A stretch of DNA of 64,000 nt from Acidobacteriota bacterium (GTDB taxonomy: Bacteria; Acidobacteriota; Thermoanaerobaculia; Gp7-AA8), in contig JAFATB010000019.1 in NCBI GenBank assembly GCA_019244185.1, positions 64,001-128,000 of the forward strand, read 5' to 3'. Position numbers and translations under genes: made by a program. Shown one piece after another: positions 11,218-63,998 of the stretch. How positions within the stretch are numbered: position 1 is the first letter of the stretch; each line of letters opens with the position of its first letter. The notes under the pieces are model-generated. The model saw only the letters and a list, made by a program, of their open reading frames with translations, did no database searches and was not told the origin of the DNA.

Positions 11218-11669
11218 GAATCCTCTCGGGCGAGAGTGCCCGACAGGATCGCCTGCGGAGCTCGCCTGAGGATCTCCGCGCGTGCAATCGCATAGCCAAG
11301 AATCGCGTCGACGAGCATCCGCCGTCCGTCGCGCGAGAGCAGGATCAGCACCTTCTGCTTCACCTCGCGCACCTCGACGATGTCCTCCCAGCGCATCCAC
11401 CGCCCGTGTTTGCCGAACAGCTTCAGCAAGCGGTTCTCGTACTTCACGCCGATGTTGCTGAAGTAGATGTGATCGCCGTACTGCAGCACCGCGGCCGCGA
11501 CCGTGCCCAGAAAGAGCAGGACCAGGCCGAACATCGGCAGGAACCGGTAGTCGGTCGGATGATCGGCGAGATACATGAAGAAGATCGCCGCGGAGCCGAA
11601 CGACGCCGCGCACGAGATGATGCGCGACACCGGCGGGCGCTCGAATACGAGGACCTGATCGTCGTTCAT
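11214..11669 (-). CDS. Hypothetical membrane protein (2 TM helices plus PH-like soluble domain)
   Basis: Two hydrophobic helices then MRWEDIVEV-type motif; coupled to the slt-like gene. Confidence 0.7.
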   Translation of the reverse strand: MNDDQVLVFERPPVSRIISCAASFGSAAIFFMYLADHPTDYRFLPMFGLVLLFLGTVAAAVLQYGDHIYFSNIGVKYENRLLKLFGKHGRWMRWEDIVEVREVKQKVLILLSRDGRRMLVDAILGYAIARAEILRRAPQAILSGTLAREDS

Positions 11670-11718
11670 GGCGTCAAAAGCTCAACAAAACAACGGCTCG
11701 GATACAATCCCCGCCCTT

Positions 11719-13431
11719 ATGCGCTGGAGCCGTTTCTTCATCAATACACTGCGAGAAGTGCCCGCCGACGCGGAAGTCGTCAGTCAGAGACTGATGATGC
11801 GCGCCGGCATGATCCGTAAAGTCGCCGCCGGCATTTACACGTATCTGCCGCTCGGCCTCCGTTCCATCCAGAAGATGGAGGCGATCGTCCGCGACGAGAT
11901 GAACCGCGCGGGCGCGTCCGAGCTGCTGATGCCGTCCATCCAGCCGGCGGAGCTCTGGATGGAATCGGGTCGCTGGCAGAAGTATGGAAAAGAACTTCTG
12001 CGGATCAAAGACCGGCACGACCGCGACTTCGTCTTCGGCCCCACGCACGAGGAAGTGATCACGGACACCGTGCGCGACGCGATCAACTCGTATCGCCAGC
12101 TGCCGATCAATCTCTATCAAATTCAGACGAAGTTCCGCGACGAAGTGCGTCCGCGCTTCGGCCTCATGCGCGGCCGCGAGTTCATCATGAAGGACGCGTA
12201 CTCCTTCCACACGACGCGCGAGTCGCTCGACGAGACGTACGACGTGATGCGCGACGCGTACAGCCGCATTTTTCATCGCTGCTCCTTAGACCACGTTCCC
12301 GTCGAAGCCGATACCGGCAACATCGGCGGCTCCGCATCGCACGAGTTCATGGTGCTCGCGCAGTCCGGCGAGGACGCGGTCGTGAGCTGCCCGAACTGCC
12401 GCTACGGCGCGAACGTGGAGAAGGCGACGTCGAAGTTCTTCGACGACGAAGTCGAGCCCGCGCCGTCGGAGGTGCTCGCCGAGCTGCATACGCCCGGCAC
12501 GCAGAGCATCGACGACGTCGGCGCTTTCCTGAACAAGCCGACCTCGCAGCTGATCAAGACGCTCGTCTTCGACACCGACCTCGGTCCGGTGATGGTGCTC
12601 GTGCGCGGCGATCGCGCCGGCAACGAGATCAAGATCAAAAACCACCTCGGCGCGCAATGGATGGAGATGCTCTCCGACACGCGCTTCGAGGAAACGACCG
12701 GCGGCCCGATCGGCTACTGCGGCCCGGTCGGCACGAAGTGCGCGCGCGTGCTCGCCGATCATTCGCTGCGCGGCCGCAAACGCTGGATCGTCGGCGGCAA
12801 CCGCAAGGACATGCATTACGACTTCGCCGTGCCCGGCCGCGACTTTCCCGAGCCGGAGTTCGGCGACTTCACGACCGCCATCGAAGGCGATCCGTGCGTG
12901 CGCTGCGGCACGCCGCTCGAGATCTATCGCGGCATCGAAGTCGGCCACATCTTCAAGCTCGGCACGAAGTACTCCGAGGCGATGCAGTGCACGTTTCTCG
13001 ATGAGAGCGGCCAGCGGCAGCCGATGGTCATGGGCTGCTACGGCCTCGGCATCGGCCGCACGGTGGCGTCGGCGATCGAGCAGAGTCACGACGACGACGG
13101 CATCATCTGGCCGATGCCGATCGCGCCGTTCGAAGTCGTGGTGACGTCGGTCGGCAAAGACGAAGCGGTGCTGCGCACGGCAACCGAGGTGTACGAGAAG
13201 CTGAAGACGGAAGGCATCGACGTGCTGTTCGACGATCGCGACGAGCGTCCGGGCGTGAAGTTCAAGGACGCGGACCTCATCGGCTTCCCGCTGCGCATCG
13301 CCGTCGGCGCGAAGAGTCTCGCCAACGGCCAGATCGAATGGAGCTTCCGCAAGGATCGCGCGAAGCAGCTCGGCGCGCCGGACGAGGTGCTGGCGCGCGT
13401 TGTCGAGGCTGTCAGGGCGGGGCTATCATGA
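11719..13431 (+). CDS. proS: Proline--tRNA ligase (bacterial type with editing insertion)
   Basis: MRWSRFF start, GPTHEE, KFRDEVRPRFGLMRGREF, GIEVGHIFKLG, MGCYGLGIGR, DDRDERPGVKF. Confidence 0.97.
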   Translation: MRWSRFFINTLREVPADAEVVSQRLMMRAGMIRKVAAGIYTYLPLGLRSIQKMEAIVRDEMNRAGASELLMPSIQPAELWMESGRWQKYGKELLRIKDRHDRDFVFGPTHEEVITDTVRDAINSYRQLPINLYQIQTKFRDEVRPRFGLMRGREFIMKDAYSFHTTRESLDETYDVMRDAYSRIFHRCSLDHVPVEADTGNIGGSASHEFMVLAQSGEDAVVSCPNCRYGANVEKATSKFFDDEVEPAPSEVLAELHTPGTQSIDDVGAFLNKPTSQLIKTLVFDTDLGPVMVLVRGDRAGNEIKIKNHLGAQWMEMLSDTRFEETTGGPIGYCGPVGTKCARVLADHSLRGRKRWIVGGNRKDMHYDFAVPGRDFPEPEFGDFTTAIEGDPCVRCGTPLEIYRGIEVGHIFKLGTKYSEAMQCTFLDESGQRQPMVMGCYGLGIGRTVASAIEQSHDDDGIIWPMPIAPFEVVVTSVGKDEAVLRTATEVYEKLKTEGIDVLFDDRDERPGVKFKDADLIGFPLRIAVGAKSLANGQIEWSFRKDRAKQLGAPDEVLARVVEAVRAGLS

Positions 13432-13436
13432 ATTTC

Positions 13437-14834
13437 ATGCGCAAGTTTCTCGTGGTGCTCGCCGCGTTCGCGGCGCTTCCGCTCGCCGCACAGAACGTCG
13501 ACATCGAGGCGTTGTCGGGCCTGCAGTTCAATTTCGGCAATCCCGGCGCGCGTTCCCTTGGCATGGGCGGCGCGTTCCTCGGACTGGCCGACGACGCCTC
13601 CGCGGCCGAAGCGAATCCCGCCGGCCTCACGATCCTGCGCAAGCCGGAAGTCTCGGTCGAAGTGCGCAACTACCTCGAGCAGCAGCTCTTCTCGACGAGC
13701 GGCACGTTCCCGAACATCCAGCGCACGCCGTTCACGCACTACAGCGACCGCGTGGTGATCAGCTTCGCCAGCGCGGTCTTCCCGATCAAGAAGTTCACCC
13801 TCGGCGCGTACTACCACGAGCCGCTCAACAACAAAGGCGGCGGCGTGGTCGCGCCGGTGACGGACCAGTTCACGGGACGCGTCACGACGCCGCTGCCGAA
13901 CTTCTATCTGCCGGCGACGAATCGCGTGCCGTCGGGCGATCCGATCACGCTCGCCGAATGCCAGGCGCTGCGCACGCAGCGCAACGATCCGTTCGCGTGC
14001 CTCGAGTTCCGCATCAATCCGTTCGTCTCCGCGCTCGACGTGCGCGAGCGGACGTTCGGCCTCGCCGGCGCGTGGCAGATCCATCCGAAGTTCTCCATCG
14101 GCGCGACCGTGCGCCACCATCGCTTCGAGGAAGCGGCGTTCACCTCGCGCTACACGCAGCAGTTCGCGCTCGACGCGATCATCGTGCAGGCCACGGCGAA
14201 GACGAACGGCGGCAACGTCGACATCGGCGAAGTCTCGGACACCACGTTCGCGGCCGGCTTCAAGTGGACGCCGCTCGACAAGCTGAGCATCGGCGGCGTG
14301 TACAAGCAGGGACCGCAGTTCGAGGCGCCGCTCTTCTTCGCGAACACGGCCTCGCAGTTCCAGTTCAACAACGTGGCGAGCACGAAGTTCCACGTGCCCG
14401 ACATCATGGGACTCGGCGTCTCGTACCGCCCGATCCCGGTGCTGACGATCAACGCCGACGCGGTGCGCGTGAAGTACTCGAATCTCGCCGACGATTTCGT
14501 GGCGTCGGTCGCCGACGTGCGCGATCTCGAGGATCCGTTCGGCGCGAACGACGTGACGGAGCTGCACGCGGGCGCGGAGTACTTTTTCCCGACGAAGATC
14601 CCGTTCGCGCTGCGCGGCGGCTTCTGGCGCGACCCCGCGCATTCGATCGAGTGGCAGGGACCGCTCAACCGTCCCGACTACATCGCCGAGGCGCTGCTCT
14701 ATCCGAAGGGCGAGTCGCAGAACCACTGGGCGGTCGGCGGCGGCTTCGCGTGGCCGCGCTTCCAGATCGACTTCGGCTACGACTCGTCGCCGCACTACAA
14801 GGTGGGGTCGCTATCGATGGTCACTCGTTTCTAA
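13437..14834 (+). CDS. Outer-membrane beta-barrel, FadL/OMPP1/TodX-like
   Basis: Signal peptide, NPGARSLGMGGAF...DDASAAEANPAGL hatch motif, C-terminal Phe. Alternative start at 13428. Confidence 0.8.
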   Translation: MRKFLVVLAAFAALPLAAQNVDIEALSGLQFNFGNPGARSLGMGGAFLGLADDASAAEANPAGLTILRKPEVSVEVRNYLEQQLFSTSGTFPNIQRTPFTHYSDRVVISFASAVFPIKKFTLGAYYHEPLNNKGGGVVAPVTDQFTGRVTTPLPNFYLPATNRVPSGDPITLAECQALRTQRNDPFACLEFRINPFVSALDVRERTFGLAGAWQIHPKFSIGATVRHHRFEEAAFTSRYTQQFALDAIIVQATAKTNGGNVDIGEVSDTTFAAGFKWTPLDKLSIGGVYKQGPQFEAPLFFANTASQFQFNNVASTKFHVPDIMGLGVSYRPIPVLTINADAVRVKYSNLADDFVASVADVRDLEDPFGANDVTELHAGAEYFFPTKIPFALRGGFWRDPAHSIEWQGPLNRPDYIAEALLYPKGESQNHWAVGGGFAWPRFQIDFGYDSSPHYKVGSLSMVTRF

Positions 14835-15510
14835 GCGCCTCCAGCGGCACATCCATCAACTCGAATTTCTCCCATCCGCCAAAGTCAAAGTGCCACCACT
14901 CGGATGGCAGCGGCGCGAAGCCGTGCCGCGTCATCACGTCGCGCAGCTTCGCGCGATTCGCGACGACGTCCGGCGGCAGGTCGTTGAAATCCTGACGCGC
15001 GCGTGACGTGAAGTCGTCGTACGGCGTCGGCATCGCCAGCTCGGAGCCCGTGCGGAGGTCGATGAGCGTGAGATCGACGGCGGCGCCGCGATTGTGGCGC
15101 GAGCCTTTGGCCGGATCGGCCACAAAGTCCGGATTCCTGATCGGCTCCCACATCGCCTCGGTCACGCAATAGGGGCGATACGCGTCGAACACCTTCACGC
15201 CGAGTCCCTGTTGCGCGAGCTCGCGCTCGACGTCCGCCAGCGCGCGGGCGGCGGGCGCGCGCAGATACGCCTTCGCCACCGGATAGAGCGTGTGCTTCAT
15301 GAAGTTGTTCGGCGTCGCGTAGCGGATGTCGAGCGGGATGCCCAGCGACGCGACGTCGACGAGGCGCGTGTCGGGATTGCGCCGCGCGAGACGCTCGTAC
15401 GTCGCGCGATCGGGCACGACGTGAAGACCGTAGCGGTTCGCGGGAATCGCCACCTGCGACGCGCACGCGAGCGCGCATGCGACGAGAGCGAAGTTGATCG
15501 CGCGTTTCAT
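14821..15510 (-). CDS. ddpX: D-Ala-D-Ala dipeptidase (VanX/DdpX, M15D), lipoprotein-like signal
   Basis: DIRYAT.NNF, DAYRP, SRHNRGAAVDLT, EWWHF; LAC lipobox. Confidence 0.88.
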   Translation of the reverse strand: MKRAINFALVACALACASQVAIPANRYGLHVVPDRATYERLARRNPDTRLVDVASLGIPLDIRYATPNNFMKHTLYPVAKAYLRAPAARALADVERELAQQGLGVKVFDAYRPYCVTEAMWEPIRNPDFVADPAKGSRHNRGAAVDLTLIDLRTGSELAMPTPYDDFTSRARQDFNDLPPDVVANRAKLRDVMTRHGFAPLPSEWWHFDFGGWEKFELMDVPLEALRNE

Positions 15511-15530
15511 GTCGCCTAATGTACCGCCCG
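15511..15530. promoter_or_regulatory. Putative bidirectional promoter with overlapping -10 boxes serving two leaderless genes
   Basis: TAATGT (15517-15522, +) is 8 nt before ATG 15531; TACATT (15523-15518, -) is 7 nt before ATG 15510. Confidence 0.55.
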
Positions 15531-16721
15531 ATGGAGCTGGACATCTTCTTCTCGATCTGTCAGACCGACGTGCACGGGTACGTGCCGAGCGAGCGGGAGA
15601 TGTTCGAGCACTTCTTCGAGCAGGTCGAGCTCGCGGACGCGCTGGGCTTCGGCACGGCGTGGGTCGCGGAGAGCCACCTCTCGACGGAGATTCAGAAAAC
15701 GAATCCCGGCGCCGTGATCCCGCACTTCATCGGCGAGATCGGCCTCAACACCGACATCCTGCAGCTCGCCCATCGCGTGTTCGCGCGCACGAAGCGCATC
15801 GGCATGGGCTCGGCGATCATGAACATTCTCTGCAACGGCGGACCGATCGCCGCGGCGGAGCGCATCAAGACGTTCCTCACGCTGCACGGGCTCGACCCGA
15901 ACGAGCGGCGCACGCTGACGGTCGGCTTCGCGTCGGGACGCTTTCCGTTCATCAACGTTCCGTACGGCATCGTGCCGCGCAATCCCGTCGAGGCTGCGGC
16001 GTGGCCGGTGGTGAAGAACAAGATCTTCGAGGAAGCGACGGAGATCTTCCTGCGGCTGCTGAAAGGGGAAGTGCTCAGCTCCGCGATGATCGCGCCGCGC
16101 GCGCTGCGCCGAGGGGACTTCCGCACCGACGCCGACTGGCAGCGCGTGCAAGAGGCATTCGGTCAATACGTTGACGAAATCGCGCTCGAGCCGCGCTGGC
16201 GCTTTCCGAACCTCAAGATCGTGCCGCAGGAGCCGCGCATGGACCTGCTGCGGCTGTCGATCGGCTCGCACGATCCGGCGACGCAGATCTTCGCGAACAC
16301 GATCCTCCCCGTCGGCGTCTTCAATCTCTCCATCACGCCCGGCGCGGAGATCGAGGAGACGAACCGCCGCATGCAGACGCACTACCACGCCGACGGCGGC
16401 GGCTGGCAGCGGCGGCTGATGCCGCGCACGGTGCTGGTCTTCATCAGCGACGACGCGCAGCAGGCCGCGGACGAGGCGCGCGACGCGCTGTCGAACTACT
16501 GGCGCGCGCTCGAAGGCACGCTCGACGAGGAGAAGGTGCGGCGCGCGACGAACAACGCGCTCGTCGGCACGCCGGACCAGATCGCGGAACAGATGCGCGA
16601 GCGCTTCGATCCCGAGGACCGGCTCATGCTCTGGTTCGACTTCAACAACCACGACTCGAAACGCGTGATGAAGAACATGCGCGACTTCATGACGCGCGTC
16701 GCGCCGGAGCTCGCGTCATGA
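15531..16721 (+). CDS. Luciferase-like (LLM class) flavin-dependent monooxygenase
   Basis: ADALGFGTAWVAESH, RTKRIGMGSAI, P...AERI, LVGTPDQIAEQM: TIM-barrel LLM motifs. Confidence 0.88.
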   Translation: MELDIFFSICQTDVHGYVPSEREMFEHFFEQVELADALGFGTAWVAESHLSTEIQKTNPGAVIPHFIGEIGLNTDILQLAHRVFARTKRIGMGSAIMNILCNGGPIAAAERIKTFLTLHGLDPNERRTLTVGFASGRFPFINVPYGIVPRNPVEAAAWPVVKNKIFEEATEIFLRLLKGEVLSSAMIAPRALRRGDFRTDADWQRVQEAFGQYVDEIALEPRWRFPNLKIVPQEPRMDLLRLSIGSHDPATQIFANTILPVGVFNLSITPGAEIEETNRRMQTHYHADGGGWQRRLMPRTVLVFISDDAQQAADEARDALSNYWRALEGTLDEEKVRRATNNALVGTPDQIAEQMRERFDPEDRLMLWFDFNNHDSKRVMKNMRDFMTRVAPELAS

Positions 16722-17818
16722 CCACCGTCGACGAAACGACGACGCCCACGGCCACGTTCGACGAGAGCGTCGCGCCGAACTTCGCGCGCGCGATGCCGAA
16801 CTGGCAGCCGCTCGTCGAGTACCGCCGCAACGGCGTCGCCGAGAACACGATCCACGGCGCGGTGTCGTGGGTCACCGGCAAGAACCTGCTCTACTCGTTC
16901 GGCGGGAACGTCGAGGTCTACGGACGCTCGATGGTGAAGCCGCTGATGATGAAAGTCTTCGCGCGCGACTTCGCGTCCGCGCTGACGCCGGAGCAGCAAG
17001 CCATCTCCGTCGCCTCGCACAACGGCGACACCGAGCACGTCGCCGTCGCGCGCTCCATCCTGCGCGAGAGCGAATGGGGCCTCATGCAGACGCCGCACGA
17101 CGTGCCGCTCGTGCAGTTCGGCCGGCAGGTGCGCCGCCCGCGCCGCTGGTATCACTGCTGTTCCGGCGAGCACGCGGCCATCCTGCGCGGCTGCCGCCTG
17201 CGCGGCTGGCGCCGCACCGGCTACGTCCTGCCGCATCATCCGTTCTTCCAGGAGTACATGCAGTACATGCGCGGCGTGCTCGGCGGCGACTGGAAGATGG
17301 GCACGATCGCGAAAGACGGCTGCGGCCTGCCGACGGTGTCGATGACGGTGACCGATCTCGCGAAGCTCTTCGCGAATCTCGTCACCGAAAAGCACGACGA
17401 CTGGATCTGGCGCGCGATGGTCGAACATCCCGATCTCATCGGCGGCTTCAACCGGCTCGACTCGACGGTGCTCAAGGCGTGCGGCGGCAAGGTCCTCGCG
17501 AAGGAAGGCGCCGACGGTCTCCTCGGCCTCGCCATCGAGCATCCCGAATTTCCCGAGGGACTCGGCGTGGTCGTGAAGATCGCGCACGGCTGGAACCCGC
17601 AGGCGACGTGGTACATCGCCCGCTACATCCTCGGCGTCCTCGGCTTCGAGTTCCGCAACCCATACAAGCTCCGGCGGCAGAAGGCGTACATCGTCCCGGA
17701 AGTGATTCCGCCGAATTTGCGCGAGCGCATGGCCGCCATCGTGCCGTGGGACTCATGGGATCCGGACATCGACCGTTGGGAGTTCGATCCGCAGGAGTTC
17801 TTCATTGCGCCTCGCTAA
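16718..17818 (+). CDS. Class 3 (Rhizobium-type) asparaginase-like hydrolase with a variant active site
   Basis: RSMVKP, ASHNG..EH, HCCSGEHA (canonical NCSGKH), DGCG, AKEGADG. ATGA overlap with the LLM gene. Confidence 0.82.
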   Translation: MTTVDETTTPTATFDESVAPNFARAMPNWQPLVEYRRNGVAENTIHGAVSWVTGKNLLYSFGGNVEVYGRSMVKPLMMKVFARDFASALTPEQQAISVASHNGDTEHVAVARSILRESEWGLMQTPHDVPLVQFGRQVRRPRRWYHCCSGEHAAILRGCRLRGWRRTGYVLPHHPFFQEYMQYMRGVLGGDWKMGTIAKDGCGLPTVSMTVTDLAKLFANLVTEKHDDWIWRAMVEHPDLIGGFNRLDSTVLKACGGKVLAKEGADGLLGLAIEHPEFPEGLGVVVKIAHGWNPQATWYIARYILGVLGFEFRNPYKLRRQKAYIVPEVIPPNLRERMAAIVPWDSWDPDIDRWEFDPQEFFIAPR

Positions 17819-19232
17819 CTTCATCAACGGCACCTTCGTCCCCCCGCGCGCGAACGCCTACCTCGACGACGTCGAGCCCGCCACCGGCGAAGTGCTCGCG
17901 CACGTTCCCGACTCCGACAGTCAAGATGTTGACGATGCCGTGCGCGCGGCGAAGGCGGCGTTCCCCGCGTGGGCGGCGATGCACGCCGAGCAGCGCAGCC
18001 GGTTGCTGCTGAAGCTCGCGGAGCTCATCGAACAGAACCTCGACGAGCTCGCGCAACTCGAGAGCCGCGACAACGGCAAGTCGGTCTCGCTCGCGCGGCG
18101 GCTGGACATCCCGCGCGCGGTGGCGAACTTCCGTTTCTTCGCCACGGCCATCCTGCATCACGCCAGCGAGGCGCACATCGCCGACGGGCACGCGCTCAAC
18201 TACACGCTGCGCCAGCCGATCGGCATTGCGGGTCTGATCTCGCCGTGGAACCTGCCGCTGTATCTGCTGTCGTGGAAGATCGCGCCTGCGCTCGCGTGCG
18301 GCAATACGTGCGTGGCCAAGCCTTCCGAGCTGACGCCGTTGACGGCGCAGCGGCTCGCGGAGCTTTCGCTCGATGCCGGCATTCCGCCGGGCGTCCTCAA
18401 CATCGTGCACGGCTACGGCGCGAAAGCCGGCGCCGCGCTCTGCGAACACCCCGACGTGCCGCTGATCTCGTTCACGGGCGGCACCGTCACCGGCGCGAAG
18501 GTCGCCGCAACCGCGGCGCCGAAATTCAAGAAGCTCTCGCTGGAGCTCGGCGGCAAGAACCCGAACCTCATCTTCGCCGACGCCGATCTCGACGAAGCCG
18601 TGTCGACGTCGATCCGCTCGAGCTTCTGGAATCAGGGCGAGATCTGTCTCTGCGGCTCGCGCATCTTCGTCGAGCGCTCGATCTACGACGCGTTCCTCGA
18701 ACGCTTCGTGGCCGCGACGAAGCAGCTGCGCATCGGCGATCCGGCCGATCCACAAACCGATGTCGGCGCGCTGATCAGCGCCGCGCACCTCGAGAAAGTC
18801 ACCGGCTATCTCCGCCTCGCCGAAGAAGAAGGCGGCACGATCGTCACCGGCGGCAAGCGCGTCGATCGTCCCGGCTTCTTTCTCGAGCCCGCGGTGATCA
18901 CGGGCCTCGGCTGCGACTGCCGCGTCCTGCAGGAAGAGATCTTCGGACCCGTCGTCACCATCACGCCGTTCGACGCGGAAGACGACGCGATCGCGTTCGC
19001 GAACTCGACGCGCTACGGACTTTCGGCAACAGTGTGGACGCGCGATCTGCAGCGCGCGCATCGCGTCGCGGCGAAGCTCGACGCCGGCACGATCTGGATC
19101 AACTGCTGGCTATTGCGCGATCTGCGCGTGCCGTTCGGCGGCGTCAAAGACAGCGGCGTGGGACGCGAGGGCGGCGTCGATTCACTGCATTTTTTCACCG
19201 AGCCGAAGAACATCTGTGTGAAGCTGTCCTGA
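17805..19232 (+). CDS. amnC: 2-aminomuconate/2-hydroxymuconate 6-semialdehyde dehydrogenase-like ALDH
   Basis: ISPWNLPL, SFTGGT, LELGGKNP, NQGEICLC, EEIFGP, WINCWLLRDLRVPFGG (ALDH8/HMSADH-type C-terminus); aminophenol pathway context. Confidence 0.85.
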   Translation: MRLANFINGTFVPPRANAYLDDVEPATGEVLAHVPDSDSQDVDDAVRAAKAAFPAWAAMHAEQRSRLLLKLAELIEQNLDELAQLESRDNGKSVSLARRLDIPRAVANFRFFATAILHHASEAHIADGHALNYTLRQPIGIAGLISPWNLPLYLLSWKIAPALACGNTCVAKPSELTPLTAQRLAELSLDAGIPPGVLNIVHGYGAKAGAALCEHPDVPLISFTGGTVTGAKVAATAAPKFKKLSLELGGKNPNLIFADADLDEAVSTSIRSSFWNQGEICLCGSRIFVERSIYDAFLERFVAATKQLRIGDPADPQTDVGALISAAHLEKVTGYLRLAEEEGGTIVTGGKRVDRPGFFLEPAVITGLGCDCRVLQEEIFGPVVTITPFDAEDDAIAFANSTRYGLSATVWTRDLQRAHRVAAKLDAGTIWINCWLLRDLRVPFGGVKDSGVGREGGVDSLHFFTEPKNICVKLS

Positions 19233-20500
19233 TGGACGAGCTCGATTCGCAGAGCATTCGCTGGCATCCGGCCACGCGCGTCCTCTTCCGCTTCGCCTTC
19301 GCCTTCTTCGTCCTCATCAACGCGCCGTTCCCGCTCGACTACATCCCGGGTGTCGGCAGCGCGTGGATGAAGATGTGGCAGGCGGCGGTGCCCGTGATCG
19401 CCGAGCGCGTCTTCCGCGTGAAGACGCCGATGCTGCCGAACGGCAGCGGCGACACGACGTGGAACTGGGTCCAGATCGCGACGATGCTCGCCGTCGCGCT
19501 CCTCGTCACGATCGTCTGGAGCGTCCTCGATCGCCGCCGCACGCAGTACACGTGGCTGCACGAGGCGCTGCGCATCTACGTCCGCTTCGCGCTCGCGCTC
19601 ACGATGATCTTCTACGGCATGGACAAGGTGATGGTGGCGCAGTTCCCGCCGCCGTCGCTCGAGAAGCTCGCGCAGCTGTACGGCGACTCCTCGCCGATGG
19701 GCGTGCTGTGGGCTTTCATGGGCTACTCGAACGCGTATCAATGTCTCACCGGACTCGTGGAAACCGTCGCCGGCATCCTGCTCACGTTCCGCCGCACGAC
19801 GCTCCTCGGCGCCTGCGTCTCGATCATCGCGATGACGAACGTCGTTGCGCTGAATTTCTTCTTCGACGTGCCGGTGAAGATCTACTCGTCCGAGCTCCTG
19901 CTGATGGCGGTCTTTCTCACCGTACGCGATCTGCCGCGGCTCGCGCGTTTCTTTCTCGATCAGCCCGCCGACGCGCCGCCACCGCCGCCGCTGCGCATGC
20001 GTCCGTGGGTGCGCCTCACGGCGATCGTCGTGCGCAACGTGCTCATCGCGCTCTACATCTACCAGTGCGTCGAGCACGTCCACGACATCCGCAAGTACAT
20101 GGAAGTGGGCCTCGAGTCGCCGCTGCGCGGCGTATGGAACGTCGACGAGCTCGTGTTCGACGGCAAGCCGCGCCCGCCGCTGACGACCGACTTCACGCGC
20201 TGGCGCCGCGTGGTCATCGACCGTCCCGGCTTTCTCTCGATCTACTCGATGGAAGACAAACGGCAGCGCTTCACGGCCAAAGTCGACGAGAAGAAGCAGA
20301 CCATCGACGTCGAAGACCGCGACAACGCGAGCGTGAAGTTCACGCTGCACTACCAGCGTCCCGCGCGCGACGTGCTGGTGCTCGACACGAACGCGCTGGG
20401 TCACGCGATCCACGCGACGTGCAGGCGCCGCGCGGACCAGAACTTCTTCCTGGTCACGCGCGGCTTCCACTGGGTCAACGAACAGCCGCTGAATCGCTAG
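19232..20500 (+). CDS. DoxX-like multi-pass membrane protein
   Basis: NGSGDTT, YG..K...QF..P, SPMGVLWAFMGYS, FDVPVK, RGFHWVNE; several TM helices. Confidence 0.75.
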   Translation: MDELDSQSIRWHPATRVLFRFAFAFFVLINAPFPLDYIPGVGSAWMKMWQAAVPVIAERVFRVKTPMLPNGSGDTTWNWVQIATMLAVALLVTIVWSVLDRRRTQYTWLHEALRIYVRFALALTMIFYGMDKVMVAQFPPPSLEKLAQLYGDSSPMGVLWAFMGYSNAYQCLTGLVETVAGILLTFRRTTLLGACVSIIAMTNVVALNFFFDVPVKIYSSELLLMAVFLTVRDLPRLARFFLDQPADAPPPPPLRMRPWVRLTAIVVRNVLIALYIYQCVEHVHDIRKYMEVGLESPLRGVWNVDELVFDGKPRPPLTTDFTRWRRVVIDRPGFLSIYSMEDKRQRFTAKVDEKKQTIDVEDRDNASVKFTLHYQRPARDVLVLDTNALGHAIHATCRRRADQNFFLVTRGFHWVNEQPLNR

Positions 20501-20507
20501 CGTCGAT

Positions 20508-22602
<2,095 letters not shown>

Positions 22603-22651
22603 TGCGCGCGCGCCAGTTGACCTGCCGCGACGCGTCGCGCATTCTGCGCCG

Positions 22652-24076
22652 GTGATTCAGAAGGCGTACATCGTTCCGGGCCAGCCGCATCCGCTCCTCG
22701 CGCCGGAGAAAAATGCCGGATGGGCGTCGCTGCGGCGCAGCTACGAGGCCGTCGGGAAGGAAATCGAGCGTTCCGGAGCGGAGCTGATCCTGCTTTATTC
22801 GACGCAGTGGTTCTCCGTCATCGGGCATCTCTTCCAGATCGACCCGAAGCCGAAGTGGACGCTCGTCGATCAGAACTGGTACGCGCTCGGCGAGATCCCG
22901 TACGAGTTCCGCATCGAACCGGAGTTCGGCAAGCTCTACGCGCGCCTGTGCAAAGAGCACGGCATGCAGGCGGCGACGGTCGCGTATCACGGCTTCCCGA
23001 TCGACACCGGCACTGTCGTCGCGCTGAAGCTTCTCAACCCGAACAACGCCATCCCCGCGTCGGTCGTCTCGTGCAACATCTACGCGGAGCGCGAGGAAAC
23101 GCGCGCGCTGGGATTCGCCGCGCGTGCCGCGATCGAGGCGTACGGCAAGAAGACGATCGTCGTCTGCGTGACGAATCTCTCGAACCGTTACGAGGTCGCG
23201 GACATCGATCCCGCGCACGACCGCATCTCGTCGCAGAAAGACGACGAGTGGAACCGCAAGATCCTGGAGATGTTCGGCGAGGGTCGGCTCGAAGACGTCG
23301 CGCAGGTCGCCCGCGACTTCGCGCGCGAGGCCAACGCCGACATGAACTTCAAGGCGATCTGGTGGCTCGGCGCGGTGATGGGCGAGCACAACAAGTACGA
23401 CGGCAAGGTGTGGGATTACCAGCCGGTGTGGGGTACCGGCAACGCCATCGTCGAGCTCACGCCGAACGACCGCAAGCAGATGGACTGGGAGAAGGAGTTC
23501 GACGAGGGACCGGTCCCGGAGTTCGCGGCGGGCGGTACCGGACTCGAGTCGCATAACGTGCTCGCCGAAGGGCCGGACGTGCACCGGCAGAGCGAGCTCT
23601 CGTCGCAGGACGATTACGGCGGCGCCGCGCCCGCGTCCTCGCAGACGGCTGCTGCAGCGCAGCCGCCGCAGATCATCCGCAGCGAACGCGCGCCGAAGCC
23701 GGTGGGGCCGTATCCGCACGCGCGCCGCGTCGGCGACTTTCTCTTCCTCTCCGGCATCGGTCCGCGCACGCCGGGCACGAACGAGATCCCCGGCCTGCTG
23801 CGCGACGGTGCGGGCAGCGTCATCGGCCACGACATCGACGTCCAGACGCGCGCGTGCATCGAGAACGTGAAGACGATCCTCGAGGAAGCGGGCAGCTCGC
23901 TCGCGAAGGTGCTCGACGTGACGGTGTATCTCACCGACATGCAGGGCGACTTCGCGCGCTTCAACGAGGTCTACGCGGAATACTTCGGCACGATCCAGCC
24001 GACGCGCACGACCGTCGGCGTCGACTCGCTGCCGACGCCGATCGCGGTCGAGTTGAAGGTCATCGCCGCGGCGTGA
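22652..24076 (+). CDS. Fusion of 2-aminophenol 1,6-dioxygenase alpha subunit and RidA-family 2-aminomuconate deaminase
   Basis: N-domain YSTQW, VDQNWY, Y.GFPIDTGT, GTGNAIVE (AmnA/CnbCa-like); linker of about 70 aa; C-domain APKPVGPYPHARRVGDFLFLSGIGPR...PTRTT...LPTPIAVELK. One uninterrupted ORF. Confidence 0.88.
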   Translation: MIQKAYIVPGQPHPLLAPEKNAGWASLRRSYEAVGKEIERSGAELILLYSTQWFSVIGHLFQIDPKPKWTLVDQNWYALGEIPYEFRIEPEFGKLYARLCKEHGMQAATVAYHGFPIDTGTVVALKLLNPNNAIPASVVSCNIYAEREETRALGFAARAAIEAYGKKTIVVCVTNLSNRYEVADIDPAHDRISSQKDDEWNRKILEMFGEGRLEDVAQVARDFAREANADMNFKAIWWLGAVMGEHNKYDGKVWDYQPVWGTGNAIVELTPNDRKQMDWEKEFDEGPVPEFAAGGTGLESHNVLAEGPDVHRQSELSSQDDYGGAAPASSQTAAAAQPPQIIRSERAPKPVGPYPHARRVGDFLFLSGIGPRTPGTNEIPGLLRDGAGSVIGHDIDVQTRACIENVKTILEEAGSSLAKVLDVTVYLTDMQGDFARFNEVYAEYFGTIQPTRTTVGVDSLPTPIAVELKVIAAA

Positions 24077-61201: not shown

Positions 61202-62503
61202 GTGGGAAAGAACGTCGTTATCGTCGGCGGCGGCCTCGCCGGTCTCGCCGCGTCGATCTATCTCGCCCGCGGCGGCCGCAACGTGACGCTCTTCGAAAAG
61301 CGGACGTACCTCGGCGGCCGCGCGATCACCACGCACCGTCACGGCTACCGCTTCAACCTCGGCGCGCACGCGCTCTACCGGCAGGGACACGCCGCCTCCG
61401 TCTATCGCGAGCTCGGGATTCCCGTGCGCGGCAAATCGCCGGCGACCTCCGGCGCGGCACTGTTCCGCGGCGACGCGTACCGGCTGCCGAGCGGCATCTT
61501 CTCGCTGCTCACGACGTCGCTGCTCTCGTTCCGCGGCAAGCGCGAGCTCGTCGCCGCGTTCGTGCGCGTGCGCCGCAACGAGGCCGCGCGCGTCGCCGAT
61601 CAAACTCTCGGCGCATGGCTCGACGCACGCTTCACCGACGCGCGCGCGCGTCAGGTGATGGAAGCGTTCTTCCGCCTCTTCACGTACGCGAACGACGCGC
61701 GCGAGCAACGCGCCTCGCTCGCACTGGCGCAGGCGCGGCTCGGCTTGCGCGGCGTGCTCTATCTCGATGAGGGCTGGCAGAAGCTCGTCGACTCGATGCA
61801 CAGCGCGGCGATCAGCTCCGGCGTGCATTTCGTCAGCAGCGCGCGCATCGTCGGCATCGTGCACGACGACCGCGTGCGCGCCGTGGAGCTCGGCGGACTC
61901 GATCTCGACGCCGATCGCATGGATACCCAGGCAATCGCGTTTCCCGCCGACGATCCCGAGATGGTCGAGGGCGCGCTCATCCCCGCAGACACCGTGCTGC
62001 TCGCCGTCGATCCGACGACCGCGGCGTCGCTGGCGGGCAACACCGGTGAAACGTGGACGCGCGCGCAGCGCGTCAACGCGGCGTGTCTCGACGTCGGCCT
62101 GCGCGCGCTGCCGCGTCCGCGCGCGACGTTCGCGCTCGGCATCGACGAGCCGACGTACCTCTCCGTCCATTCCGCCGCCGCGCATCTCACGCCGAAAGGC
62201 GGCGCGCTGATTCAGCTCGTGCGCTACGGCGGCAGCGACGCGGCCGCGGACGAGCGCGCGCTCGAGGCGATGCTCGACCGCTTTCAGCCCGGTTGGCGCG
62301 AGCTCGTCGTGCACCGCCGCTTCCTGCCGTCGATGACGGTCTCCAACGCGCTGGTCACGCCCGCGAACCCGCGCCCATCCGTCAACACCTCGGTGCGCGG
62401 GCTCTACCTCGCGGGCGACTGGGTCGGCGACGAAGGGCTGCTGTCCGACGCCGCGCTCGCGAGCGCCCGCGCCGCGGCGCGGGCGATTCTCGCGGAAACG
62501 TAG
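61202..62503 (+). CDS. FAD-dependent oxidoreductase (phytoene desaturase-like family)
   Basis: IVGGGLAGL...FEK...GGRA, FNLGAHAL, GLYLAGDWV. Confidence 0.85.
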   Translation: MGKNVVIVGGGLAGLAASIYLARGGRNVTLFEKRTYLGGRAITTHRHGYRFNLGAHALYRQGHAASVYRELGIPVRGKSPATSGAALFRGDAYRLPSGIFSLLTTSLLSFRGKRELVAAFVRVRRNEAARVADQTLGAWLDARFTDARARQVMEAFFRLFTYANDAREQRASLALAQARLGLRGVLYLDEGWQKLVDSMHSAAISSGVHFVSSARIVGIVHDDRVRAVELGGLDLDADRMDTQAIAFPADDPEMVEGALIPADTVLLAVDPTTAASLAGNTGETWTRAQRVNAACLDVGLRALPRPRATFALGIDEPTYLSVHSAAAHLTPKGGALIQLVRYGGSDAAADERALEAMLDRFQPGWRELVVHRRFLPSMTVSNALVTPANPRPSVNTSVRGLYLAGDWVGDEGLLSDAALASARAAARAILAET

Positions 62504-63527: not shown

Positions 63528-63998
63528 ATGGCCATGGATGAAGGTGAGTTTCGCGCGGCGATGTCGCATTTCGCCAGCGGCGTGACGGTCGTGACGACCG
63601 AGCACGAAGGCAAGCGGTATGGCATGACGGTGGCGTCCTTCGCGTCGCTCTCGCTGCATCCGCCCCTCGTCATCGTCTGCATCGAGAAGAGCGTGAAGTC
63701 GCACGACGCGATCGCCGCCGCGGGCCGCTTCGGCGTGAGCATCCTGGCCCTCGATCAGAAAGACGTCTCCGGCCGCTTCGCCTCGAAGCGCGACGACAAG
63801 TTCGACGGCGTGGCCGTCCGCGAGGGCGCGCTCGGCGTACCGCTCATCGAAGGCGCGATCTGCACCCTCGAATGCCGCATCCATCAGCAGCTTCCCGGCG
63901 GCGATCATTCGATCTTCGTCGGCGAAGTGGTCGACGCGCAGATGCGCGAAGCCGCGCCGCTGGTCTACTTCCGCAGCGCGTATCGAGAGCTCGCGTAA
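63528..63998 (+). CDS. Flavin reductase family protein (HpaC/RutF-like)
   Basis: FRAAMSHFASGVTVVT, SLSL.PPL, GDHSIFVGEV, PLVY. Confidence 0.92.
   Translation: MAMDEGEFRAAMSHFASGVTVVTTEHEGKRYGMTVASFASLSLHPPLVIVCIEKSVKSHDAIAAAGRFGVSILALDQKDVSGRFASKRDDKFDGVAVREGALGVPLIEGAICTLECRIHQQLPGGDHSIFVGEVVDAQMREAAPLVYFRSAYRELA

Follow-up and report, generated by a model that had tools for sequence, protein, structure and literature searches.

Why would a member of the Acidobacteriota keep genes for the ring cleavage of 2-aminophenol in the company of genes for a flavin monooxygenase and an asparaginase-like hydrolase? The question is raised by a stretch of 64,000 nucleotides, referred to here as the window (positions 64,001 to 128,000 of the forward strand of contig JAFATB010000019.1, GenBank assembly GCA_019244185.1). 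2-Aminophenol 1,6-dioxygenases have been described chiefly in organisms that degrade nitrobenzene or aminophenols. In the window, the genes of such a dioxygenase (AmnB and AmnA) form a module with those of a luciferase-like monooxygenase (LLM), a hydrolase of the asparaginase II family (AsnII-like) and an aldehyde dehydrogenase (ALDH). On balance, this module probably encodes the middle and lower steps of a tryptophan catabolism that is independent of kynureninase and runs via a Baeyer-Villiger product of kynurenine and 2-aminophenol. The broader statement, that it belongs to a tryptophan pathway which depends on tryptophan dioxygenase (TDO) and does without kynureninase, can be made with good confidence. 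The link to tryptophan is well supported; the gene identities, their conserved linkage, the co-inheritance with TDO and the lack of kynureninase are matters of observation.

The module consists of five genes:

15531..16721, plus strand: LLM, a divergent luciferase-like flavin monooxygenase (Pfam PF00296; the open reading frame opens at 15519)
16718..17818, plus strand: AsnII-like, a divergent serine hydrolase of the class 3 asparaginase family (PF06089; Pfam Asparaginase_II, E 1.5e-50)
17805..19232, plus strand: ALDH, AmnC-like, i.e., similar to 2-aminomuconate 6-semialdehyde dehydrogenase (Pfam Aldedh, E 1.3e-175)
21685..22602, plus strand: AmnB, catalytic beta subunit of 2-aminophenol 1,6-dioxygenase (PDB 3vsg_B, 1.4e-132)
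22652..24076, plus strand: fusion of AmnA (residues ~1-270) with a RidA domain (residues ~340-474) (Pfam LigB and Ribonuc_L-PSP)

A preliminary description of the window had placed these five genes here, with a gap of about 2.4 kb before AmnB and a fusion of AmnA with a deaminase. Their positions and identities hold in comparisons with Pfam, NCBIfam and PDB, and the gap and the fusion are borne out by the coordinates and by the LigB and Ribonuc_L-PSP domains. By coordinates, the LLM and AsnII-like genes overlap by 4 bases and the AsnII-like and ALDH genes by 14 bases, while the AmnA-RidA gene starts 50 bases past AmnB.

The lower half of the module is closely related to proteins of solved structure. 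The match of AmnB to 3vsg_B, an enzyme solved as 2-amino-5-chlorophenol dioxygenase, reaches 445 bits and spans 294 residues (3-296), followed by 8ihg_A (3.1e-125) and 7txy_B (5.7e-114). The reading frame of AmnB opens at 21535; homology begins at the methionine at 21685, the start having been fixed by translation. The alignment shows conservation of LAPHPPH, VHSPHW and EVK(A/S)G, stretches within which the 2-His-1-carboxylate iron ligands presumably lie. The AmnA part (residues 3-269) matches 7txy_A (1.4e-55) and 3vsg_A (6.4e-48). AmnB and AmnA (AmnBA) are predicted from these matches to be a 2-aminophenol 1,6-dioxygenase heterodimer of the LigB superfamily, responsible for the ring cleavage of 2-aminophenol. 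As for the RidA domain, it matches 2-aminomuconate deaminase 6izh (3.4e-26) and scores 107.4 with TIGR00004 (cut-off 106.25). The top PDB matches of the ALDH are 2-aminomuconate 6-semialdehyde dehydrogenase (4npi/4i1w, E 1.6e-139) and AmnC (7bzv, 4.8e-136), other aldehyde dehydrogenases standing at 1e-125 or weaker. It stays below the cut-off of TIGR03216, the equivalog of 2-hydroxymuconic semialdehyde dehydrogenase (581.9 bits vs 693.25).

In the pathway proposed here, TDO would open the indole ring of tryptophan to give N-formylkynurenine, and deformylation would yield kynurenine. The TDO gene would be the one on contig C18 of the window genome, and in other lineages the one in the same operon. 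The LLM, dependent on FMN and assisted by a separate flavin reductase, would insert an oxygen atom between the aryl ring and the ketone of kynurenine in a Baeyer-Villiger reaction. The product, 2-aminophenyl beta-L-aspartate, could rearrange to N4-(2-hydroxyphenyl)-L-asparagine by an O-to-N acyl shift. Whether ester or anilide, the beta-aspartyl compound would be split by the AsnII-like hydrolase into L-aspartate and 2-aminophenol. AmnBA would then convert 2-aminophenol to 2-aminomuconate semialdehyde, the ALDH would oxidize the latter to 2-aminomuconate, and the RidA domain fused to AmnA would deaminate 2-aminomuconate to 4-oxalocrotonate. We infer all chemistry that precedes AmnBA, which of deformylation and oxygenation comes first, and the dependence of the LLM on FMN.

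This scheme is the most economical one, as each family would act in a known type of reaction, AmnBA would receive its known substrate and no decarboxylase would be needed. The absence of kynureninase and of 3-hydroxyanthranilate dioxygenase (HAAO) would also be explained. LLM-type Baeyer-Villiger enzymes exist, for instance, the diketocamphane monooxygenases. What is known is the downstream Amn half and the entry enzyme TDO; what is new is the bridging pair of LLM and hydrolase, with two candidate enzyme activities. No description of the gene set or of a route via a kynurenine Baeyer-Villiger product and 2-aminophenol was found in the main texts of CC-licensed PMC articles and bioRxiv preprints. 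Likewise, by a term search, the paper on the ARO microcompartment (PMC10470539) mentions neither tryptophan nor kynurenine, and neither asparaginase nor luciferase.

The distribution of the genes ties the module to tryptophan. Among 301 Acidobacteriota genomes (thresholds of E<=1e-40 for AmnB and E<=1e-30 for LLM), an AsnII orthologue occurs in 12, with a clean gap between orthologues (>=513 bits, >=63% identity) and paralogues (<=104 bits). LLM and AmnB orthologues are found in the same 11 genomes, all among these 12, and AmnB never occurs in this sample without the LLM/AsnII pair. The twelfth genome (G056; L178, G056:C43; L073) has lost AmnB and keeps only a remnant of the LLM (residues 333-398), with AsnII, ALDH and AmnA-RidA intact; its locus is a decaying copy of the cluster. 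TDO is present in all 12 AsnII-bearing genomes vs 108 of the 301 overall.

Kynureninase shows the opposite tendency. Matches were counted at E<=1e-30 in place of the curated cut-off because many matches below that cut-off directly adjoin TDO (e.g., in G050, G218 and G299). So defined, a kynureninase-like match is present in 124 of the 301 genomes and in 81 of the 96 TDO-positive genomes without the module. In contrast, ten of the 12 module genomes have none, and the matches in the other two are weak (117-123 bits) and comparable to the 127 bits found in G294, which has no TDO. The expectation that the hosts would possess TDO and mostly lack kynureninase is supported by these counts, and TDO even lies inside the cluster in three lineages.

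A similar picture emerges within the window's order, represented by 104 genomes. AsnII and TDO are both present in 84 of them and both missing in 14, with AsnII alone in four and TDO alone in two; the corresponding table for AsnII and AmnB reads 84/4/0/16 (both, AsnII only, AmnB only, neither). The genomes without both AsnII and TDO are spread over at least 11 genera. Since mixed states occur within four genera (g190, g199, g202, g3), TDO and the module appear to have been lost together repeatedly.

The window genome itself (5.3 Mb, 98.9% complete), whose closest relatives are metagenome-assembled genomes (MAGs) of the Thermoanaerobaculia (Acidobacteriota), contains one TDO-family gene (G000:C18:16308-17009; L165:9809-10510). 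The encoded protein of 233 aa scores 93 bits with Pfam (cut-off 34.9) and 2e-20 with the TDOs in PDB, and it keeps both residues aligned to what we take to be the heme-site histidines of Xanthomonas TDO. The gene begins 28 bases past ribBA (DHBP synthase/GTP cyclohydrolase II), so that riboflavin synthesis is represented next to the first step of a pathway that presumably requires FMN. Kynureninase (TIGR01814) was not found in the genome. Its absence, reported earlier for the window, holds therefore at the level of the whole genome. The absence of HAAO, reported alongside, stands insofar as no convincing match was found in the genome; it has to be qualified by a sole borderline match, a cupin with 24.7 bits.

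The three lineages with TDO inside the cluster differ in gene order. Four genomes of family f40 share the order TDO-SDR-LLM-AsnII-~2.6 kb-ALDH-AmnB-AmnA/RidA, where SDR stands for a FabG-like short-chain dehydrogenase/reductase. In G113 (f40), a gene for a protein of the 23S-rRNA-intervening-sequence type (PF05635; L166:8125-8526) lies between SDR and LLM. G273 (family f85, GC 0.52) carries a tight operon TDO-SDR-LLM-ALDH-RidA-AHSA1-GST, with a stand-alone RidA after ALDH, and AmnB-AmnA-AsnII on another contig. The metagenome locus L133 has the order TDO-like-LLM-AsnII-AmnB-AmnA/RidA. The LLMs of the three lineages are 49-64% identical to one another; hence, the TDO-bearing lineages are not near-duplicates.

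The SDR lies directly upstream of the LLM in f40, f85 and marine clusters (L189:7498-8265, L166:7271-8065, L110:1564-2433), with 47-51% identity between lineages. It gave only generic FabG-like matches and was not found next to the module in the Thermoanaerobaculia. A 279-aa protein of the marine clusters was considered as a hidden TDO and rejected: its PDB profile search returned the tetratricopeptide repeats (TPRs) of LGN and kinesin light chain, and 16 of 16 such proteins match TPR_12 and none TDO.

Linkage of the five genes was followed in two sets of 80 loci each, one from the Thermoanaerobaculia and one from metagenomes (GC 0.34-0.72), the latter obtained by a scan whose alignment had a marine homologue as its lead sequence. 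The five genes mostly stay together in the Thermoanaerobaculia loci. The LLM is adjacent and on the same strand in 40 of 71 and elsewhere in the locus in 24 more; the ALDH is a direct neighbour in 62 of 68, and 34 of 49 contain AmnB. In the metagenome loci, the LLM is adjacent on the same strand wherever at least 1.5 kb of upstream sequence is available (63/63). Of the 68 loci that extend 1.6 kb or more downstream, 67 have the ALDH next to AsnII, and of the 40 that extend 7 kb or more, 38 contain AmnB and 38 contain AmnA. The claim that LLM and asparaginase-like genes are conserved with amn genes elsewhere is thus upheld by the metagenome loci, by the shared presence in 11 of the 301 genomes and by fusions of AmnA with AsnII. 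Furthermore, all five genomes in which an AsnII-ALDH pair stands apart carry AmnB (90-91% identity) and LLM (79-84%) elsewhere. Loci with AsnII-ALDH and no AmnBA are thereby ruled out as a sign of an ALDH that works free of ring cleavage.

Further genes recur in the metagenome loci (L083-L162). In 40 of the 80, AmnA is followed, about 6.5 kb downstream of AsnII, by an amino-acid permease of the APC family that carries a pair of EF hands at its C terminus. Moreover, PanB and a protein with a Lon-substrate-binding domain lie between ALDH and AmnB in many of them.

What could the hydrolase do? The AsnII-like protein scores 172.5 bits with PF06089 (cut-off 25) and E 4e-21 with the class 3 L-asparaginases ReAIV and ReAV. 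In the part of PMC12292245 that deals with the ReAV active site, Arg47 is described as the anchor of the alpha-carboxylate of L-Asn and Ser48 as the nucleophile, with Ser48-Lys51 and Ser80-Lys263 as the Ser-Lys tandems. The equivalents of Arg47, Ser48, Lys51, Ser80, Lys263, Cys135, His139, Asp187 and Cys189 (ReAV numbering) are kept in the AsnII-like protein, and its R70, S71, K74, S100 and K262 do not vary among the 27 sequences of alignment A3. It is probably a catalytically competent serine hydrolase, and the binding of an alpha-amino acid is likely retained.

Judged by its sequence, it is nevertheless not a typical class 3 asparaginase. The zinc ligand Lys138 is replaced by Glu throughout the clade (CSGEH for CSGKH), and the zinc site Cys135-Lys138-Cys189 is thus incomplete. 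The orthologue of G273 (L170:9250-10332) has neither of the zinc-binding cysteines (SSGHH and DGDG vs CSGEH and DGCG), which suggests that zinc may not be needed in this clade. Further differences of the AsnII-like protein are an insert rich in Arg (RQVRRPRRWYH) and a C-terminal extension that is conserved, and it is about 30% identical to canonical members; a canonical paralogue with CSGKH coexists in the window genome. Its best 120 database matches are 63-95% identical, and their source names include MAGs of Planctomycetota, Sericytochromatia, Myxococcota and Alphaproteobacteria.

Three fusions (P0124, P0125, P0126; 719-736 aa) emerged when longer proteins were sought, each with a LigB domain similar to AmnA at the N terminus and an AsnII-like domain at the C terminus. 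Their LigB domain is 52% identical to AmnA of the window, and their AsnII-like domain is 61-67% identical to the hydrolase. AmnA is therefore fused either to a RidA-type deaminase, as in the window, or to an AsnII-like hydrolase, and the latter fusions place the hydrolase step next to the dioxygenase step. AmnA seems to be a scaffold for neighbouring pathway enzymes, and both kinds of fusion suggest a channelling of the reactive 2-aminophenol and 2-aminomuconate.

The LLM is a divergent member of its family. Its likely start at 15531 agrees with the 'ME.DIFF' start of the homologues (alignment A2), and it scores 50.7 bits with PF00296 (Bac_luciferase; cut-off 27.9). It reaches the cut-off of no NCBIfam LLM subfamily (MsnO8, Atu2307, F420-dependent and others), the best value being 28.1 bits vs 166.95. 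An AF2 model (pLDDT 87.8) gave 112 PDB matches at E<=0.001 with Foldseek, and among the matches listed, all are luciferase-family proteins with the TIM-barrel fold. The top ones are the Enhygromyxa luciferase 8cbb, 2i7g, RslO1 (7bip) and LuxA/B, at 13-19% identity. The type II Baeyer-Villiger monooxygenase (BVMO) 4uwm, a 3,6-diketocamphane monooxygenase, stands at rank 22 (TM 0.58, 14% identity) behind luciferases and other monooxygenases, and the diketocamphane monooxygenase 5aec at rank 50. Homology allows a flavin-peroxide oxygenase and leaves the reaction unspecified.

Two particular LLM homologues deserve mention. The orthologue at G069:C32:80593-81702 matches as two abutting pieces (residues 2-196 and 218-396), possibly because of a frameshift or an assembly error. 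A search for LLM fusions gave a sole match, the EukProt protein P0127 (1501 aa, 41% identity, 99% coverage of the LLM). Its N-terminal LLM homologue precedes a domain similar to class-I glutamine amidotransferases, then an ApbE flavin-transferase domain and some 500 residues without assignment. Oxygenase, amidase and flavin functions may be combined as a module in this one chain, which is a lead only.

The other genes that were considered in the window are the following:

11668-13431: prolyl-tRNA synthetase gene
13338-14834, plus strand: open reading frame of a FadL/PorV-like outer-membrane protein, overlapping the 3' end of the prolyl-tRNA synthetase gene by ~90 bases
14821-15510, minus strand: DdpX/VanX-like D-Ala-D-Ala dipeptidase (M15), divergently adjoining the LLM gene
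19013-20470, minus strand: conserved hypothetical protein, no Pfam match
20508-21608, minus strand: TPR protein, weak TPR matches
61202-62503, plus strand: flavin-containing amine oxidase, at the far end of the window
63528..63998, plus strand: HpaC-type flavin reductase, cut by the window end (Pfam Flavin_Reduct, PF01613, E 1.7e-48)

The 2.4 kb between ALDH and AmnB are filled by the two minus-strand genes for the hypothetical and the TPR protein. Sixteen of the 80 Thermoanaerobaculia loci have a homologue of the hypothetical, 31-45% identical, also between ALDH and AmnB. In many relatives ALDH directly abuts AmnB, so the gap in the window is a local interruption, and the minus-strand genes (19013..21608) are probably not part of the pathway. 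The flavin reductase named in the preliminary description proved genuine by its PF01613 match, and it is a possible, though unlinked, supplier of FMNH2 for the LLM.

Several observations weigh against the proposed route. Fifteen TDO-positive genomes of the 301 have neither the module nor a kynureninase-like match. Within the window's order, no TDO match was found in four of the 88 AsnII-positive genomes and one was found in two of the 16 AsnII-negative ones, and the Fisher values (4e-12, 2e-15) overstate the support because related genomes are not independent. Only one of the 80 metagenome loci showed a TDO within 10 kb, and none of the 80 from the Thermoanaerobaculia did. The TDOs score below the TIGR03036 equivalog cut-off of 390.7 bits (109.6 in the window genome, 204.6 in f40, 275.4 in f85); hence, they might act on a substrate other than L-Trp. 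A formamidase was not identified; the window genome gave no match to the cyclase type, and the alpha/beta hydrolase of the marine clusters gained no support as a kynurenine formamidase, its best PDB match being a carboxylesterase (3.8e-19) and an NCBIfam assignment being absent. DmpG_comm, the marker of the classical lower meta-pathway, was not found in the window genome either; two generic FAA_hydrolase genes lie elsewhere in that genome. The SDR, conserved between TDO and LLM in f40 and f85 and beside the LLM in marine clusters, has no role in the scheme. Finally, the LLM has no close characterised relative, with 13-19% identity to any solved structure, and homology therefore does not indicate Baeyer-Villiger activity.

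How do other explanations fare? Could the genes share no function at all, their order being inherited synteny and LLM and AsnII-like being unrelated to amn? Within the Thermoanaerobaculia, the flanking genes for prolyl-tRNA synthetase, the outer-membrane protein, the DdpX-like dipeptidase and a glycosyltransferase are also syntenic, the dipeptidase gene in most of the loci, so that this set of loci alone proves no functional link. These housekeeping neighbours, the dipeptidase included, are syntenic in none of the 80 metagenome loci, and the five genes are still together there; co-occurrence persists where the genes are dispersed, as in the five variant genomes, and fusion proteins exist. The explanation is already contradicted by metagenome linkage, genome co-occurrence and fusions, and it is very improbable. 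A pathway that does not concern tryptophan has somewhat more to commend it, and is still quite unlikely. A divergent TDO might open another indole or related heterocycle, or LLM and hydrolase might free 2-aminophenol from an N-acyl-aminophenol, a benzoxazolinone-type compound or an anilide. The TDO scores below the equivalog cut-off, the unclassified LLM and the distance of TDO in most loci would agree with this. It has to be set against the co-inheritance of TDO and module (84/4/2/14), the TDO in the operon of three lineages, the retention of both residues aligned to the heme-site histidines and the amino-acid permease that follows AmnA in half of the metagenome loci.

The remaining explanations keep tryptophan and change the chemistry. 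The roles could be redistributed, with the AsnII-like protein acting, for example, as N-formylkynurenine formamidase and the LLM oxygenating kynurenine or N-formylkynurenine. The ester would then open spontaneously or by another hydrolase, and the SDR would supply reduced flavin or carry out an unrecognised redox step. Such a division would account for the lack of a recognisable formamidase, both in the cyclase-type search of the genome and among the marine alpha/beta hydrolases, and for the conservation of the SDR and, in marine clusters, of the alpha/beta hydrolase beside the LLM; in the window's lineage the SDR is not beside the module, but an HpaC-type flavin reductase is present in the window. 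We consider it rather unlikely, as the fusion or adjacency of AsnII-like and AmnA in several lineages fits a step neighbouring the dioxygenase better than the first hydrolysis after TDO, and the anchoring Arg for the alpha-carboxylate is retained.

The main rival assumes that the LLM replaces kynurenine monooxygenase (KMO) and hydroxylates C3 to give 3-hydroxykynurenine, whose o-aminophenol ring is cleaved by AmnBA. The AsnII-like protein would then hydrolyse the C-C bond of the beta-keto-imine, releasing L-aspartate and leaving 2-aminomuconate semialdehyde for ALDH and RidA. It uses the same genes, the hydrolase would still form a beta-aspartyl-enzyme, and the linkage with TDO, the lack of kynureninase and HAAO, and the AmnA::AsnII fusions fit equally well. 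Nonetheless, it requires three unusual activities, namely aromatic hydroxylation by an LLM, tolerance of AmnBA for a bulky ortho-acyl group, and hydrolysis of a C-C bond by a Ser-Lys enzyme of beta-lactamase fold. The 445-bit match of AmnB to 2-amino-5-chlorophenol dioxygenase argues, moreover, for a small aminophenol as substrate, and this course of events is unlikely.

The Baeyer-Villiger route via 2-aminophenol is therefore retained as the preferred explanation. We see an even chance that it is a widespread and undescribed route in soil Acidobacteriota and marine bacteria, in which an LLM would carry out a Baeyer-Villiger oxidation of kynurenine and a hydrolase of asparaginase fold would yield Asp and 2-aminophenol. 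If so, it would be a third route of kynurenine degradation beside the anthranilate and 3-hydroxyanthranilate branches, with kynureninase, KMO, HAAO and ACMSD all dispensable. Its two new activities would be the Baeyer-Villiger oxygenation of kynurenine by an LLM-type enzyme and the hydrolysis of a beta-aspartyl-aminophenol compound, and it would give the 'xenobiotic' aminophenol dioxygenase pathway a natural origin in an amino acid. The blanket annotations 'asparaginase' and 'LLM oxidoreductase' in many environmental genomes and metagenomes would also be corrected.

Parts of the module have counterparts in known systems. The amn/cnb operons are known from Pseudomonas sp. AP-3, P. pseudoalcaligenes JS45 and Comamonas CNB-1. 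A further one, that of Burkholderia xenovorans LB400, is given as amnRJBACDFEHG in the relevant part of PMC3790839. Like these operons, the window has AmnB, AmnA, an AmnC-like ALDH and a RidA-type, AmnD-like deaminase. In contrast to them, DmpG_comm, which represents the amnEFGH-type lower pathway, was not found in the window genome, AmnA is fused to RidA or AsnII-like, and the ties are to LLM, hydrolase and TDO, not to nitroreductase or mutase genes.

With the kynurenine pathway of bacteria and eukaryotes to 2-aminomuconate, the proposal shares the start at TDO and the end with 2-aminomuconate semialdehyde dehydrogenase and deamination. It differs in that the window genome has neither kynureninase nor a convincing HAAO match, and LLM, AsnII-like and AmnBA would replace the middle part. 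In the kynurenine pathway the side chain leaves as alanine, whereas in the proposed route it would leave as aspartate, without decarboxylation. A parallel in logic is the 4-hydroxyacetophenone pathway of Pseudomonas fluorescens ACB, which comprises an aryl-ketone BVMO, an aryl-ester hydrolase, a ring-cleaving dioxygenase and a semialdehyde dehydrogenase. There, too, an aryl ketone becomes an aryl ester and then a phenol and an acid, followed by ring cleavage and aldehyde oxidation. However, that pathway employs a single-component type I BVMO of the FAD/NADPH kind and an ordinary esterase in place of an LLM and a hydrolase of the asparaginase II family.

On the level of single enzymes, the 2,5- and 3,6-diketocamphane monooxygenases (type II BVMO) have the luciferase-like TIM-barrel fold in common with the LLM, at about 14% identity, and closer folds exist (luciferases, Atu2307-type proteins, RslO1). 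The Rhizobium etli enzymes ReAIV and ReAV are of the same Pfam family as the AsnII-like protein, which keeps the Ser-Lys tandems, Arg47, His139, Asp187 and the two zinc cysteines, and which departs from them in the Glu for Lys138, the Arg-rich insert, the C-terminal extension and the low identity to canonical members. Lastly, the Rut pyrimidine pathway presents the same combination of LLM (RutA), amide hydrolase (the amidohydrolase RutB) and RidA (RutC), together with a flavin reductase (RutF). Its proteins have no sequence relationship to those of the module beyond the superfamilies, and in the module the RidA domain is attached to a subunit of the ring-cleavage dioxygenase.

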